From Sphingorhabdus sp. (GTDB lineage: Bacteria; Pseudomonadota; Alphaproteobacteria; Sphingomonadales; Sphingomonadaceae): DNA of 64,000 nucleotides. The stretch covers positions 10,592 to 74,591 of the forward strand of contig NZ_JBIIMC010000008.1 of assembly GCF_044338195.1 (NCBI RefSeq), read 5' to 3'. Of the stretch, positions 27,970-33,418 are shown piece after piece. Below the pieces are notes generated by a model. That model had not been told where the DNA came from and searched no databases. It was given only the letters and a program-made list of their open reading frames with translations. A program made the position numbers and the translations under genes. How positions within the stretch are numbered: the stretch's first letter is position 1; each line of letters begins with the position of its first letter.

Positions 27970-29382
27970 ATGGGTACCTCAGCTAAGGACATTATCAAGC
28001 GCATCAAGGATGAAGAGATCGAGTGGGTCGATGTCCGTTTCACCGATCCCAAGGGCAAATGGCAGCATCTGACGATGTGCGCTGGCGTGATCGGCGAAGA
28101 CGAGTTGGAAGACGGCTTGATGTTTGACGGTTCGTCCATCGAAGGCTGGAAAGCCATCAACGAATCCGACATGATCCTGAAGCCTGATCTTGATGCCGTG
28201 TACGTAGATCCATTCTCCGCCACGCCCATGATGATCATCTTCTGCGATATCGTCGAGCCATCAACGGGCGAGCTGTACAGCCGCGACCCGCGCTCGACCG
28301 CAAAGCGCGCTGAAGCATATTTGAAAACCACAGGCATCGGCGACACCGTATATGTCGGTCCAGAAGCCGAGTTTTTCATGTTCGACGATGTGCGTTTCGA
28401 AAACAGCTACAACACGTCATATTACAAGATCGACGATATTGAGCTGCCAACGAACACCGGCACGAAATATGAAGGCGGCAATATGGGCCATCGCCCCCGC
28501 GCAAAGGGTGGTTATTTCCCAGTCGCGCCCGTCGACAGCGCAGTGGACATCCGTGGCGAAATGGTTTCGACCATGCTCGAAATGGGTCTGCCTTGCGACA
28601 AGCATCACCATGAAGTTGCCGCAGCCCAGCATGAGCTTGGCCTGACTTTCGGTACGCTGACTCAGACCGCTGACCGTATGCAGATCTACAAATATGTCGT
28701 GCATCAGGTCGCACATGCATATGGCAAGACCGCAACGTTCATGCCGAAGCCAATCAAGGAAGACAATGGTTCGGGTATGCACACCCACCTGTCGATCTGG
28801 GAAGGCAAGACCCCGCTTTTCGCAGGTGACGGCTATGCCGGTCTTTCGGACATGTGCCTGTATTTCATCGGCGGCATCATCAAGCATGCCAAGGCCGTGA
28901 ACGCATTCACAAACCCAACAACAAACAGCTACAAGCGTTTGGTGCCCGGTTACGAAGCGCCTGTGTTGCTCGCCTATTCGGCGCGCAACCGCTCAGCTTC
29001 ATGCCGTATTCCATATGGAGCAGGTGCCAAGGCCAAGCGCGTTGAAGTCCGCTTCCCTGACGCAATGGCGAACCCATATCTGTGCTATGCGGCTTTGTTC
29101 ATGGCTGGCCTCGACGGCATTCAGAACAAGATCCACCCTGGCGATGCCATGGACAAGAACCTGTACGACTTGCCACCAGCAGAGCTTGCTGAAGTGCCAA
29201 CTGTAGCCGGTTCGCTGCGTGAAGCTTTGGATTGCCTGGCCGCGGATCACGACTTCCTGTTGAAGGGTGACGTGTTCTCGAAGGACCAAATTGACAGCTA
29301 TATCGAATTGAAGATGGAAGACGTCGCCCGTTGGGAAATGACGCCAAGCCCAGTCGAATTCGACATGTACTACAGCTACTGA
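27970..29382 (+). CDS. glnA: Glutamine synthetase type I
   Basis: [31 protein letters not shown] adenylylation site. Confidence 0.98.
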
Positions 29383-29406
29383 TCCCACGCATCGGATCAT
29401 TAGCTT

Positions 29407-29441
29407 AAGGCCCGGCGGTTGGGGGACTGCCGGGCCTTTTT
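29407..29441 (+). terminator. Intrinsic terminator after glnA
   Basis: AAGGCCCGGCGGT / ACTGCCGGGCCTT stem followed by a T-run. Confidence 0.85.
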
Positions 29442-29521
29442 ATTTGTGTTTAGTCATTGCGTCCCTGACGCCATGTCTTATCGAGGCGGCTCGTGAGCCG
29501 CCGTGACAGCAGATGCGCAGA

Positions 29522-30187
29522 TTAAAGCCCGGCCTCTACTGCAATGCGAATAGCGTCGGCCGTACTCGCTGCGCCCAAGCGGTCCATTAACAACGCACGG
29601 TGCATTTTGACCGTTTGCTCGCTGAGCCCAAGCCGGAAGGCGATTTGCTTGTTCAAGTGGCCAAGCGCCATTTCGGCCAAAACCTCGCGCTGCCGCCGCG
29701 ACAATGCCTTCACCGCCGCCGCTGCCGCAACATGGCGGCTCTCGTAAGACGCTGGCGCGCTGGGCTCAAGTTCCACCTGAGAGCCAAGAAAGAACTCAAG
29801 CTCACCATTTTCGTCAAACAACGGCGCGACCAGCACTGCATTGCGAAAGGGTGTGCCATCGCGTTTGTAGTTCAAAATTTCGACCATGACCGGGGCATGA
29901 CGTTGAACGCCATTGCTAATCGTGTCGGTTAACCACGGCTCCGTTGCTGGACCGGCCAAAAATTTGCAGTTTCGCCCAATGATTTCATGTTCCGAATAGC
30001 CCGTCAGTTCAACAAACGCAGCATTACAGGCGATGATGGGATTACCGTTTTGACGCGGGTCGCTTATCACGGACGCTATCGGGCTATTCGCGATCAGCGC
30101 GTCTAGTTTCTCGTTAGACCGTCCCAAAACGTCCAAATTACAGTGCCTCCCGCGTACCCCCCATAGGCGCATTTCAGCGTTAACCAT
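29522..30187 (-). CDS. LOV-HTH (LuxR-type) blue-light-activated transcription factor, EL222-like; true start uncertain
   Basis: LOV motifs GRNCKFLAG (photoactive Cys74), [11 protein letters not shown] and FLGSQ (Gln137); C-terminal LSRRQREV...[19 protein letters not shown]...RIAVEAGL, closely matching my recollection of EL222. Confidence 0.93.
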
Positions 30188-30321
30188 TATATGTGCCAGT
30201 TCCGCGATGTCGAGAGCAATATCACAAAAACATGGTATAAAGGTTAGGTTGTTGTCCCCGGGTCAGCGTTTAAGAAAAATGCCCCGACATCCGAAATGAT
30301 GTCGTAAAGGGGGAGAATAAC

Positions 30322-31068
30322 GTGGAAAATCTAACTTTTGGCCAATATTCATTGGTCTATAATGCATTCTCATTTACATTTGCCACCATGGCAGCAGCAA
30401 CGCTGTTTTTGTGGCTCGGCCGCTCGCAAGTGGGCCCAGCATACAAGACAGCGCTCACCATTTCCGGCTTGGTTACCGCCATTGCCGCATATCACTATTT
30501 CCGTATTTTCGAGAGCTGGGAAGGCGCATATTCCGTTAAAGACGGCATAGTGACCGCAAGCGGCTATGCGTTTAACGATGCCTATCGTTATGTCGACTGG
30601 TTGCTCACGGTGCCATTGCTTCTCATCGAACTCATCCTCGTGATGCGTCTGAGCCAGGAAGAAACCGTCTCGAAGTCGTTCAAGCTTGGCGGCGCAGCGG
30701 CATTGATGATCATCTTGGGTTACCCAGGTGAAATCGCAACGGACATTCCAACCCGCGTATTGTGGGGCACATTGTCGGCAATCCCGTTTGTCTACATCAT
30801 GTGGCAGCTGTTCGCCGGCCTCGGTGCATCGATCAACAACCAACCAGAAAATGTACGTGAATTGGTGAAGAAGGCACGTTTACTGACCTTCGCATCATGG
30901 GGTTTCTACCCGATCGTATATATGATCCCGTACACCAATCTGAGCGGTTCGGACGTAACCGTTGGCGTACAAGTTGGCTACACAATCGCCGATTTGATCG
31001 CAAAGGCTGGCGTTGGCGTCTTGATCTACATGATCGCCGTGCGCAAGTCGCAAGCCGAATATGGCTAA
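30322..31068 (+). CDS. Microbial rhodopsin, xanthorhodopsin/actinorhodopsin-type, DTE outward proton pump
   Basis: Seven hydrophobic segments; YHYFRIF (His58), RYVDWLLTVPLLLIE (D92/T96/E103), GYPGE, WGFYPIVY, DLIAK (D224, retinal Lys228); GTG start with GGGGAG SD. Confidence 0.95.
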   Translation: MENLTFGQYSLVYNAFSFTFATMAAATLFLWLGRSQVGPAYKTALTISGLVTAIAAYHYFRIFESWEGAYSVKDGIVTASGYAFNDAYRYVDWLLTVPLLLIELILVMRLSQEETVSKSFKLGGAAALMIILGYPGEIATDIPTRVLWGTLSAIPFVYIMWQLFAGLGASINNQPENVRELVKKARLLTFASWGFYPIVYMIPYTNLSGSDVTVGVQVGYTIADLIAKAGVGVLIYMIAVRKSQAEYG

Positions 31069-31090
31069 GGCCTCCGGATAAACACTGGAC

Positions 31091-31112
31091 GTACGCCGCT
31101 CCGGCGGCGTAC
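31091..31112 (+). other. GC-rich hairpin between the rhodopsin gene and blh
   Basis: GTACGCCGC-TCCG-GCGGCGTAC, perfect 9-bp stem, no U-tract. Confidence 0.6.
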
Positions 31113-31120
31113 ATTCCTGT

Positions 31121-32029
31121 ATGAATATAATTTTATATCCGCATTCTGCAGGCGCAACATTTTCAAAAATGTTGCGCCTGTTTGCGTTACCGGCAGCGAC
31201 CTTGCTGCTGATTGCCGCAGACCGCCTTCTGGGCGGCATGGACAGTGTTGAGGCTAATATGTTGGCTGCTCTGGCCATCGTCCTTGCAGGCATTCCCCAC
31301 GGCACGCTGGATGTCGAAATAGCCGCCGCCCATTTTGGGCAGAATGGGCTCGCCGGCAGGGCCAAGATTATCGGCGGCTATGTGGGATGCGCCGCCGCTA
31401 TGGTCGTTTTATGGCTGCAGCTGCCGGAACTGGCGCTCATTTCATTCCTGCTCATCTCAATTGTGCATTTCAGCCGTGACTGGCGTGGCGGCGTTGATCC
31501 GTTTCTGGCCATGATGGTGGGGTGGGCATTGGTCGCCTTGCCTGCGCTGGCCAGCCCTGACGATGTCGCCATGATATTCGCCGCGCTAACGGGCAACCAA
31601 AACGGCACCGTGATCGCCGCGTTGCTCGGCGCGGCATCGGTCCCTGCGGCGCTGGGCAGCCTTGTCTTTGCCTATTGGGCGTTCCGGCATGAGGATGCGC
31701 AAAGCGCGCTTGAAGTACTCGCCTGCATCACCGCCGCTTTGTTCCTGCCGCCGCTCGTGGCATTTGCCGTTTTCTTTTGCGGGTTGCACTCCCCGCGACA
31801 TATGGCGGACGCGTTACGCGAAACAGGTGGTCTGTCCAAATTCAAAAAGGCAGCCATTGTCGCCGCCGTGTCCGCGCTTTCATTAGGGTTAGGCGTATTG
31901 ATGTTCCTGTACCAAGGCGACGTCCCTTCGGACATGGGCATTGTCCGGTCTGCGTTCATTCTGATATCAACGTTGACGGTGCCGCATTTCATCCTTGAAC
32001 ACATCCTTGCGAAAAAGCCGGCCGCATAA
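31121..32029 (+). CDS. blh: Brp/Blh beta-carotene 15,15'-dioxygenase (retinal synthesis); likely start ~31169
   Basis: GIPHGTLD, SIVHF, LHSPRH and LTVPH motifs; multi-TM; immediately downstream of the rhodopsin gene. Confidence 0.92.
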   Translation: MNIILYPHSAGATFSKMLRLFALPAATLLLIAADRLLGGMDSVEANMLAALAIVLAGIPHGTLDVEIAAAHFGQNGLAGRAKIIGGYVGCAAAMVVLWLQLPELALISFLLISIVHFSRDWRGGVDPFLAMMVGWALVALPALASPDDVAMIFAALTGNQNGTVIAALLGAASVPAALGSLVFAYWAFRHEDAQSALEVLACITAALFLPPLVAFAVFFCGLHSPRHMADALRETGGLSKFKKAAIVAAVSALSLGLGVLMFLYQGDVPSDMGIVRSAFILISTLTVPHFILEHILAKKPAA

Positions 32030-32101
32030 GTTCCGCATCAACACCCTTGCCCGAACGCACAAAGCGCGGCACATCATGGCTATAGTCTTCAGGAGTATGT
32101 C

Positions 32102-33418
32102 ATGAAATTCCAAGCCCTGTCTTTGATGAGCAGCGTTGCGCTCTTGGCGCTTTCAACGCCGGCTTTTGCCCAGCTTTCAAAGCCCGAAGCCAAGATGGCC
32201 GCAACCGTTGACGCGGAATATGAACGCTCGGTTGCCTTGCTTGAACGGATGGTCAACCAGAATTCGGGAACGATGAATTTCGCAGGCGTCAAAACCGTCG
32301 GCGATATGATGCGTGCTGAGCTCGAACCGCTTGGCTTCAAGGTTGCATGGCTCGATATGGCCAAGGCTGGGCGCGCAGGGCACCTGGTCGCGACAAAGGC
32401 GGGCAAGAAGGGCACAAAGAAGCTTTTACTGATTGCGCATCTCGACACTGTCTTTGAGGCCGATAGCCCTTTCCAAAAATTCGTCCGTCGTGGTGACCAA
32501 GCTGTTGGCCCCGGTGCGGGTGACGACAAGGGCGGCATGGTCGTTATCGTGTCGGCGTTGCGCGCCATGCAGGCCGCAGGCACGCTGAAGGACGCGCATA
32601 TAGAAATTCATATGACGGGAGATGAAGAGGACGCAGGCGACCCCATCGAGATTACCCGCGCGCCGTTGATTGCTGCCGGAAAGACCGCGGACGTCGCACT
32701 CGATTTCGAAGGCCTGTCGATTGAGGATGGCAAGGATATGGGCGTTATCGCCCGCCGGTCGTCGAACAGTTGGAAGTTGGAGGTTTCCGGCGTCACCGGA
32801 CATAGCTCTCTAATCTTTGATTCCACATATGGCGATGGCGCAGCGTTTGAACTGGCGCGCATAATCCATCAATTCCGCACAGAGCTGCCTGAGCCGAACC
32901 TGACGTTCAACGTCGGGTTGATTGCAGCGGGGCAAGAGGCAAGCTTCGACAATGACGGCGTCCGCGCAAGTGCCAAAGGAAAGACCAACATCATTCCGGG
33001 CATAGCCATAGCGCGCGGTGACTTCCGGACCTTATCCGAAGACCAAAGTGCGCGGGTCCGGCAGAAGATGCAGGCCATCGTGTCGGCATCTGCACCAAAG
33101 ACCAGCGCCAAGATTAGCTTTGACCCCGGCGGCTATCCCGCGATGGCGCCAACAGAGGGCAACAAGGCGTTGTTGGCGCAACTGAATGTTGTAAACCGGG
33201 ATCTGGGACTGGATGCCCAACCGCCGCTCAACCCGTTGAAACGTGGCGCAGGAGACATCAGCTTCGTCGCCAATGACGTCGACGGTCTCGTCGGCCTTGG
33301 CGTCTATAGCAAAGGCGACCACGCCCCCGGGGAGACCGTCGACCTTGCCAGCATCAAGCGTCAGGCAAAGCGTGCAGCCATCCTGATGAGCCGGCTGTCG
33401 CAGGAAAAGGCGATGTGA
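32102..33418 (+). CDS. Secreted M20/M25/M40 metallopeptidase (glutamate carboxypeptidase-like)
   Basis: Signal peptide; AHLDTV, GAGDDKGG, GDEE, GDH metal ligands. Confidence 0.88.
   Translation: MKFQALSLMSSVALLALSTPAFAQLSKPEAKMAATVDAEYERSVALLERMVNQNSGTMNFAGVKTVGDMMRAELEPLGFKVAWLDMAKAGRAGHLVATKAGKKGTKKLLLIAHLDTVFEADSPFQKFVRRGDQAVGPGAGDDKGGMVVIVSALRAMQAAGTLKDAHIEIHMTGDEEDAGDPIEITRAPLIAAGKTADVALDFEGLSIEDGKDMGVIARRSSNSWKLEVSGVTGHSSLIFDSTYGDGAAFELARIIHQFRTELPEPNLTFNVGLIAAGQEASFDNDGVRASAKGKTNIIPGIAIARGDFRTLSEDQSARVRQKMQAIVSASAPKTSAKISFDPGGYPAMAPTEGNKALLAQLNVVNRDLGLDAQPPLNPLKRGAGDISFVANDVDGLVGLGVYSKGDHAPGETVDLASIKRQAKRAAILMSRLSQEKAM

Follow-up and report, generated by a model that had tools for sequence, protein, structure and literature searches.

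Genes at the locus

The 64,000-nt stretch of Sphingorhabdus sp. contig NZ_JBIIMC010000008.1 analysed here (the window) holds a compact cassette in which a gene for a one-component light-oxygen-voltage (LOV) protein with a LuxR-type helix-turn-helix (HTH) domain is divergent from a rhodopsin gene, itself followed by blh (Table 1). A previous sequence-only reading had described a LOV-HTH gene facing away from a DTE proton-pump rhodopsin gene and blh across about 134 bp, within a block that lies between the glnA terminator and a peptidase gene and is devoid of carotenoid (crt) genes. Our analysis bore out this description: every open reading frame (ORF) was found where it had been placed, both boundary features were located, and crtY, crtI, and crtB were found on another contig (C21) of the same genome. 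The analysis as a whole suggests that this is likely a self-contained, light-gated cassette, in which the LOV-HTH protein, when activated by light, would drive the rhodopsin-blh operon in the manner of a LuxR-type activator.

The rhodopsin (Bac_rhodopsin PF01036, 135 bits, 3e-39) carries the D-T-E triad in RYVDWLLTVPLLLIE and the Schiff-base Lys in ADLIAKAG, and its DWLLTVPLLLIE and ADLIAK segments align with those of XR and psXR. Its best solved relatives are psXR (9wfa, 271 bits), XR (3ddl, 262 bits), and GR (6nwd, 262 bits), whereas green proteorhodopsin reaches only ~83 bits, so that by alignment the pump is a member of the xanthorhodopsin family and not a classic proteorhodopsin. A Leu occupies the green-tuning position, and the Gly of the carotenoid-antenna site is kept (LWG aligned with LWG of XR). 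The protein is predicted to be a light-driven outward proton pump. The assignment of blh was equally firm, with TIGR03753 matching at 158.4 bits against a cut-off of 95.25 over profile positions 2-259 of 260, and PF15461 at 135 bits. Only 52 nt separate the two genes, no promoter-like site was found in this gap by a consensus scan, and blh is probably co-transcribed with the rhodopsin gene.

The LOV-HTH protein (PAS_9, 5.7e-15; GerE, 9.2e-17, at residues 161-216) shares its one-component LOV-Jalpha-HTH architecture, its length, the adduct-Cys motif, and most of the recognition helix with EL222 of Erythrobacter litoralis HTCC2594, with which it aligns at 245 bits over residues 31-221 and through the last residue (8a5r/3p7n). 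Both proteins fall in one 37-row clade with support 100/99. The adduct Cys lies in GRNCKFLAG (codon 29968-29966), aligned with GRNCRFLAG of EL222. It had been named Cys74, which holds in the 221-aa model and becomes Cys69 if translation begins at ATG 30172. The latter is probably the true start (216 aa), because the annotated ATG 30187 overlaps the -10 element TATAAT (30186-30191) of the gene's own promoter. This promoter, the sole promoter-like site found by the consensus scan of 29350-32150, predicts constitutive expression of the LOV gene from a nearly leaderless mRNA.

Linkage of LOV-HTH and rhodopsin genes

The sequence-only reading had proposed a search for conserved linkage of the LOV-HTH and rhodopsin genes, whose absence from relatives would have counted against its hypothesis, and such linkage was found in both orientations and in two gene orders. 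We collected 80 public loci encoding the closest rhodopsins, of which 76 were informative in that they were not cut at a contig end, and scored a LOV-HTH homologue as adjacent when it lay within 400 nt of the rhodopsin gene. By this measure a LOV-HTH gene adjoins the rhodopsin gene in 57/76 loci from Sphingomonadales and Caulobacterales, with 32 divergent pairs (Sphingorhabdus, Novosphingobium, and other Sphingomonadales) and 25 co-directional pairs with the LOV gene upstream (Sphingomonas, Sandarakinorhabdus, Brevundimonas, and Caulobacter). Of 301 evenly sampled Sphingomonadales genomes, 16 had this rhodopsin type, seven of them with an adjacent LOV gene, and most of those with an EL222-like gene were without any rhodopsin. 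The LOV gene stood immediately upstream of the rhodopsin gene in 40 of 55 rhodopsin-bearing Sphingomonas genomes. Chance adjacency would be about one in a thousand for genomes of 2-4 Mb that hold one to three such genes each, a figure that is our own rough estimate and not a computed one, and the observed adjacency is far beyond chance.

An operator-like box before a weak rhodopsin promoter

The EL222 consensus is given as RGNCYWWRGNCY (Rivera-Cancel 2012, as quoted in PMC10521638). Exact matches to the consensus occur within 320 nt upstream of the rhodopsin gene in 20 of the 27 loci whose adjacent LOV protein has a Lys in the recognition helix (LSE-K-TVKMHR; hereafter Lys-type). These loci carry 2.31 consensus sites per kb upstream of the rhodopsin gene versus 0.053 per kb in their remaining sequence, a 44-fold enrichment, and their full site is a 20-bp palindrome, ATACGGCCTAAAGGCCGTAT, that is, ATACGGCCT-AA-AGGCCGTAT. 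Loci whose LOV protein has a Gln at this position (Gln-type) yielded an exact match in 1/32 cases, and loci without an adjacent LOV gene in 0/15.

The window belongs to the Gln-type loci. The exact consensus RGNCYWWRGNCY has no match in its 64 kb, and a plain EL222 site at this locus was therefore rejected in favour of a variant box common to the window's clade, which contains a proposed 12-bp operator core in the EL222 register. Positions 1-8 of the box are 87-97% conserved among 39 distinct promoters of the window's group, and the operator is asymmetric, with an invariant left half and a degenerate right half. Across Gln-type operators, half-site position 4 is A in 9/9 distinct sites and position 11 is never C. 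The sister locus L070, also divergent and encoding a Lys-type protein, carries the exact consensus as AGTCTAAAGTCC at the same place before the same -35 element.

Immediately after the box, TTG is present in 100% of the 39 promoters and the TA of a -10 element in 87%, at fixed spacing, while the spacer is only 33-72% conserved. We therefore read TTGTTG/TAAGAA as a weak rhodopsin promoter, with a predicted start site at ~30283. The operator ends 3 nt before this -35 element. Relative to the predicted start sites, its centre would lie at about -43.5 on the rhodopsin side and at about -60.5 on the LOV side. By analogy, -43.5 is the position occupied by LuxR-type and class II activators. The rhodopsin promoter fell below the threshold of the scan of 29350-32150, as expected of an activator-dependent promoter, whereas the LOV promoter matches consensus at 11 of 12 positions, and these predicted strengths fit a constitutive sensor gene and an activated operon. 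The divergent layout is such that one site could serve the promoters of pump and sensor alike, at the two distances just given.

The arrangement resembles that of LuxR at the lux box of luxI and of the engineered promoter PBLind, where a dimeric LuxR-type HTH protein occupies a symmetric site ~42-45 bp upstream, before a weak -35 (PMC5001607). The Lys-type sites found here are likewise symmetric, whereas the window site is asymmetric, and LuxR responds to an autoinducer where the present protein would respond to light on its fused LOV domain.

In a scan of the 2.2-Mb genome with a 21-nt position weight matrix (PWM), the rhodopsin promoter was the sole strong match (score 34 versus 17.4 for the next) and no second strong box was found. 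Should the model hold, the LOV-HTH protein would regulate essentially nothing beyond the cassette. Core-only patterns (31 Gln-type and 34 canonical matches) and an extended palindrome scan returned background-like, mostly intragenic matches, and on reading the sequence upstream of crtY no box was found.

A recognition-helix change paired with an operator change

The recognition helix of the window protein has Gln191 (codon 29617-29615) where EL222 has Lys (SE-K-TVKMHR), and all 33 Gln-type LOV-HTH proteins form a single clade. The Lys/Gln position probably corresponds to Lys179 of DosR. In the LuxR-type domain of DosR, three residues contact bases, and Lys179 is among them (PMC4082495). The proteins thus differ from EL222 in this residue and the window differs in lacking the EL222 target consensus, and the pairing of a Lys-to-Gln substitution with a C:G-to-A:T change in the operator is chemically sensible.

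Comparison with Sphingomonas glacialis AAP5

For Sphingomonas glacialis AAP5, the xanthorhodopsin cluster was described as including a 'blue-light-activated' gene (Kopejtka et al., mSystems 2020, PMC7762795), and RNA-seq later identified the rhodopsin operon as the most light-induced locus of this strain, with the LOV gene constitutive (PNAS 2022, PMC9897461). The same authors regarded the EL222-like neighbour as the operon's likely regulator (PMC7762795, PMC9897461); these papers identify no operator and contain no genetics or binding assays (PMC9897461). The hypothesis of the sequence-only reading is consequently a published, unproven proposal for a related organism. That reading had left open whether the arrangement was already described: the adjacency and a likely role of the LOV gene as regulator were, for AAP5, while the operator, its position and geometry, and the Lys-to-Gln/operator switch appear to be new in the literature searched. 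Full-text literature searches returned no follow-up to the AAP5 proposal.

As an outside check, we examined the LOV-rhodopsin gap from 18 Sphingomonas genomes against the figures published for AAP5, namely a start at -185, a leader of 86 nt, and a stop at -99 (PMC9897461). No rhodopsin gene was found near the published AAP5 coordinate 1,092,6xx among 401 Sphingomonas genomes, and the comparison was made through distances conserved in AAP5-like loci. In 15 of the 18 gaps the operator is followed, at a constant distance of 44.5-45.5 nt from its centre, by a conserved structured leader (81-95 nt), which begins at -183 to -188 in 7 of these 15. The closest matches are L116 (-188 to -101) and L123 (-184 to -99), and the distances agree with the published start, leader length, and stop. 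Two of the other three loci, L112 and L118, have an operator-like site and no detectable leader blocks; the site in L112 is doubtful, whereas that in L118, GGCACAAAGTCC, is shared with its neighbours. As judged from these conserved distances, the loci show the AAP5 layout to be the common one with the LOV gene upstream.

The leader itself was seen in L116 (G626:C1:387450-387950) and in 14 further loci of the L110-L127 series, between the EL222-type operator/promoter and the xanthorhodopsin gene. It is closed by a 13-bp stem, GTCGCCACAGCGGC...GCTGCTGTGGCGAC, in which some pairs are compensatory, and corresponds to the 86-nt leader of AAP5.

AAP5 and the window thus share an EL222-like LOV-HTH gene beside a xanthorhodopsin-blh operon, with crt genes elsewhere. 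They differ in that AAP5 and the Sphingomonas loci have a co-directional upstream LOV gene, a Lys-type helix, and a canonical operator, whereas the window has a divergent gene, a Gln-type helix, and a changed operator. In addition, the ~86-nt structured leader and the further ~99 nt of the former contrast with a predicted 5' untranslated region (UTR) of ~39 nt, lacking such a leader, in the window.

Proposed mechanism and alternative readings

The proposal that the LOV-HTH protein directly controls rhodopsin-blh is supported by the linkage, the operator, its geometry, and the light induction of the AAP5 operon, and it is from these that we infer binding, its dependence on light, and the sign of regulation. 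The LOV-HTH gene would be read from its own near-consensus, probably constitutive promoter. Under blue light, formation of the flavin mononucleotide (FMN)-Cys adduct should free the HTH domain, and the protein would form dimers, like EL222. We propose that the dimer occupies the operator GGTATAAAGGTT, abutting the poor -35 element, and recruits RNA polymerase as LuxR does at the lux box. A single transcript encoding the xanthorhodopsin-type pump and Blh would thereby be switched on, and Blh would produce retinal by cleaving beta-carotene that the crtYIB genes on the other contig supply. Such gating may, as the sequence-only reading suggested, reduce competition with the host's carotenoid pathway.

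Several observations weigh against this scheme. The window core has two mismatches to the EL222 consensus, both C positions and the two best-defined ones. The Lys-to-Gln and operator changes constitute one evolutionary event on the tree, and because the switch occurred only once, the covariation of helix and operator is suggestive rather than statistical. The genome also holds a second LOV-HTH paralogue. Relatives resembling S. wooponensis, which have lost the LOV gene, have no Gln-type copy elsewhere, and hold only the other LOV paralogue type, still retain most of the box; this fits a recent loss of the LOV gene with a promoter-up change and leaves room for another factor. Finally, the leader RNA of AAP5 is reported to be abundant in the dark as well, with light changing read-through (PMC9897461), so that simple light-activated initiation may be incomplete, at least in AAP5. 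Light-dependent initiation in that strain is hidden by a leader RNA of high stability, or else there is an additional step.

Among the alternatives, the one that survives best, though we regard it as unlikely, is that the LOV-HTH protein binds the box with another logic, either as a light-dependent repressor or autoregulator or jointly with a post-initiation step as suggested for AAP5. The box does lie between two divergent promoters, at about -60.5 from the LOV start, and overlaps a possible second LOV promoter that would use the conserved GATATT; CAATATC, 13 nt upstream of the box, is also conserved across the group, and EL222 can act as a repressor from a site set within a core promoter (PMC5001607). 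Against repression, the operator stops 3 nt short of the weak -35 and does not cover the -10 or the start, the spacing of about -44 to the mapped start recurs in Sphingomonas, and the homologous AAP5 operon is light-induced, not repressed. The post-initiation variant draws on the AAP5 data, read as constitutive initiation with light-dependent read-through, but the window has no leader terminator, its 5' UTR hairpin being without a T-run on the plus strand.

We consider it quite improbable that the adjacency reflects mere co-transfer of light-related genes, with the LOV-HTH protein acting on targets elsewhere, such as photo-oxidative stress or carotenoid genes, and the box serving another factor or belonging to the promoter architecture. 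The prevalence of EL222-like genes in rhodopsin-less genomes, the retention of the box in LOV-less relatives, and the position of the cassette in a variable insertion spot between glnA and the M20 gene would all agree with co-transfer. It does not account for the fact that box type follows the recognition residue of the neighbouring protein, that the Lys-type box is the experimentally derived EL222 consensus, enriched as described above, and that the PWM scan found no second such site in the genome.

The reading of TGGTATAAA (30233-30241) as the extended -10 of a constitutive rhodopsin promoter, and of the dyad CGACATC-N6-GATGTCG as a protein operator, is very hard to credit and was rejected: TGnTATAAA does resemble TGnTATAAT, the dyad is perfect, and a third GATGTCG occurs at 30206-30212, yet the supposedly invariant -7 T is T in 1/39 sequences, the invariant TTG and fixed-distance TA are left unexplained, L070 lacks TG-n-TA there and has an exact EL222 site, the third GATGTCG overlaps the -35 of the LOV promoter, and the dyad behaves as an RNA stem because its sequence shifts in relatives while pairing persists.

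Other features of the locus and genome

Table 1. Features of the LOV-rhodopsin-blh cassette and its boundaries (window positions)
Feature	Position	Strand	Description
glnA intrinsic terminator, left boundary of cassette	29407-29438	plus	14-bp stem (9 GC pairs), then TTTATTT
LOV-LuxR/HTH gene	29522-30187	minus	221 aa, divergent from rhodopsin gene
LOV gene promoter	30186-30213	minus	TCGACA, 16 nt, TATAAT; 11/12 consensus, sigma-70-type
LOV/rhodopsin intergenic gap	30188-30321		134 bp
Conserved box	30231-30251	plus	CATGGTATAAAGGTTAGGTTG, common to the window's clade
Proposed LOV-HTH operator core	30234-30245	plus	GGTATAAAGGTT, EL222 consensus register, two C positions changed
Rhodopsin promoter, weak (predicted)	30249-30276	plus	-35 TTGTTG 30249-30254, 16-nt spacer, -10 TAAGAA 30271-30276
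5' UTR hairpin	30285-30304	plus	CGACATC-CGAAAT-GATGTCG, perfect 7-bp stem, before Shine-Dalgarno GGGGGAG (30309-30315)
Rhodopsin gene	30322-31068	plus	GTG start
Intergenic hairpin	31091-31112	plus	GTACGCCGC-TCCG-GCGGCGTAC, 9-bp stem, 8 nt before blh start
blh	31121-32029	plus	Brp/Blh beta-carotene 15,15'-dioxygenase
M20 peptidase gene, right boundary of cassette, conserved backbone	32102-33418	plus	Peptidase_M20 + M20_dimer domains

Two potential RNA structures accompany the operon. The 5' UTR hairpin, which is terminator-like on the minus strand, is probably an RNA 5' stem-loop, and relatives have a stem at the same place with different sequences. Sequestration of the Shine-Dalgarno sequence by this hairpin was considered and rejected (pairing probability 0.57 versus 0.65 in shuffles, p = 0.43). 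RNAalifold returned no consensus structure on the short UTRs of relatives, and Rfam gave no significant match in 29300-32200 or in the Sphingomonas leaders. The hairpin between rhodopsin gene and blh has no T-run and therefore probably sets the proportion of rhodopsin to Blh or shields the rhodopsin message; in relatives the stem persists through compensatory changes in its two arms (GTGCGTCGC/GCGATGTAC, GCTGCAC/GTGCAGC, and GGCGGGGCGC/GCGCTCCGCC).

The second LOV-HTH paralogue of the genome (C47:64416-64991; L088 6414-7052, minus strand) lies downstream of an EPSP-synthase-family gene, shares 54% identity with the cassette protein, has the helix LSEKTVQMHR, and falls outside the clade of EL222 and the window protein. 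It is also present in genus-mates, including those without the cassette LOV gene.

The rhodopsin locus of S. wooponensis 03SU3-P (L009, 4374-6000) encodes, in place of the LOV protein, a repeat protein of 352 aa that is rich in Gly, Tyr, and Asp and has a signal-like N-terminus, and the LOV gene is likewise gone from three further loci (L012, L014, and L016). The rhodopsin -35 in these four loci is TTGACA, versus TTGTTG in the window, which looks like a natural loss of light gating.

The source genome (2.2 Mb, 98.8% complete) is that of a freshwater Sphingorhabdus, since its rhodopsin recurs with 100% identity in metagenome-assembled genomes from Lake Mendota. Its contig C21 holds a carotenoid cluster of crtY, crtI, a LOG-like gene, crtB, and a crtZ-like hydroxylase gene, with crtY (TIGR01790, 310 bits), a crtI-like gene, and crtB (by SQS_PSY) constituting a beta-carotene supply in the same genome. 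The gene between crtI and crtB belongs to the LOG/'lysine decarboxylase' family (L087 8593-9174).

The cassette lies in a conserved backbone, glnB-glnA...M20, that is kept without it in a genus-mate (L109, G261:C1:994000-1004000), and the glnA-M20 interval is a variable insertion spot. No clean empty site was found among four cassette-less genus-mates, because three lack the M20 neighbour and the fourth, L109, has an ORF in the interval. This ORF is of aldehyde-dehydrogenase size, a label given by eye and not by a domain search. The window cassette is comparable to the opsin-blh photosystem cassettes known with or without crtEIBY and subject to lateral spread, in that it is a compact opsin-blh unit in a conserved backbone and is absent or replaced in genus-mates; it differs from them in bringing its own photoreceptor-regulator.

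Implications for the EL222 family

EL222 is among the most widely used optogenetic transcription factors, and its natural role is poorly defined. Rhodopsin genes are light-induced in several bacteria, and to our knowledge few regulators of this expression have been identified in other bacteria. Our results tentatively suggest, at somewhat less than even confidence, that the native and ancestral task of the EL222 family is to switch on rhodopsin photosystems from a lux-box-like operator, and that the window's clade is a naturally re-specified version of it, in which the change from Lys to Gln191 in the helix is paired with a change from a GGCCT-type to a GGTAT-type operator. If this is true, nature offers a ready-made orthogonal blue-light transcription factor/operator pair.

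The general idea has already been published for AAP5, and the gain here is one of mechanistic detail and breadth rather than of concept: the locus offers a defined 12-bp site, a promoter distance, and a predicted specificity residue, and cultured strains with and without the LOV gene constitute natural controls, among them Sphingorhabdus profundilacus IMCC26285 (L031), which shares the window's layout, and the LOV-less S. wooponensis 03SU3-P. Light-activated control of the rhodopsin-blh operon by its neighbouring LOV-HTH protein, if confirmed, might supply an orthogonal light switch, would provide a physiological target for the EL222 family, and would explain how streamlined freshwater bacteria avoid opsin and retinal synthesis in the dark.

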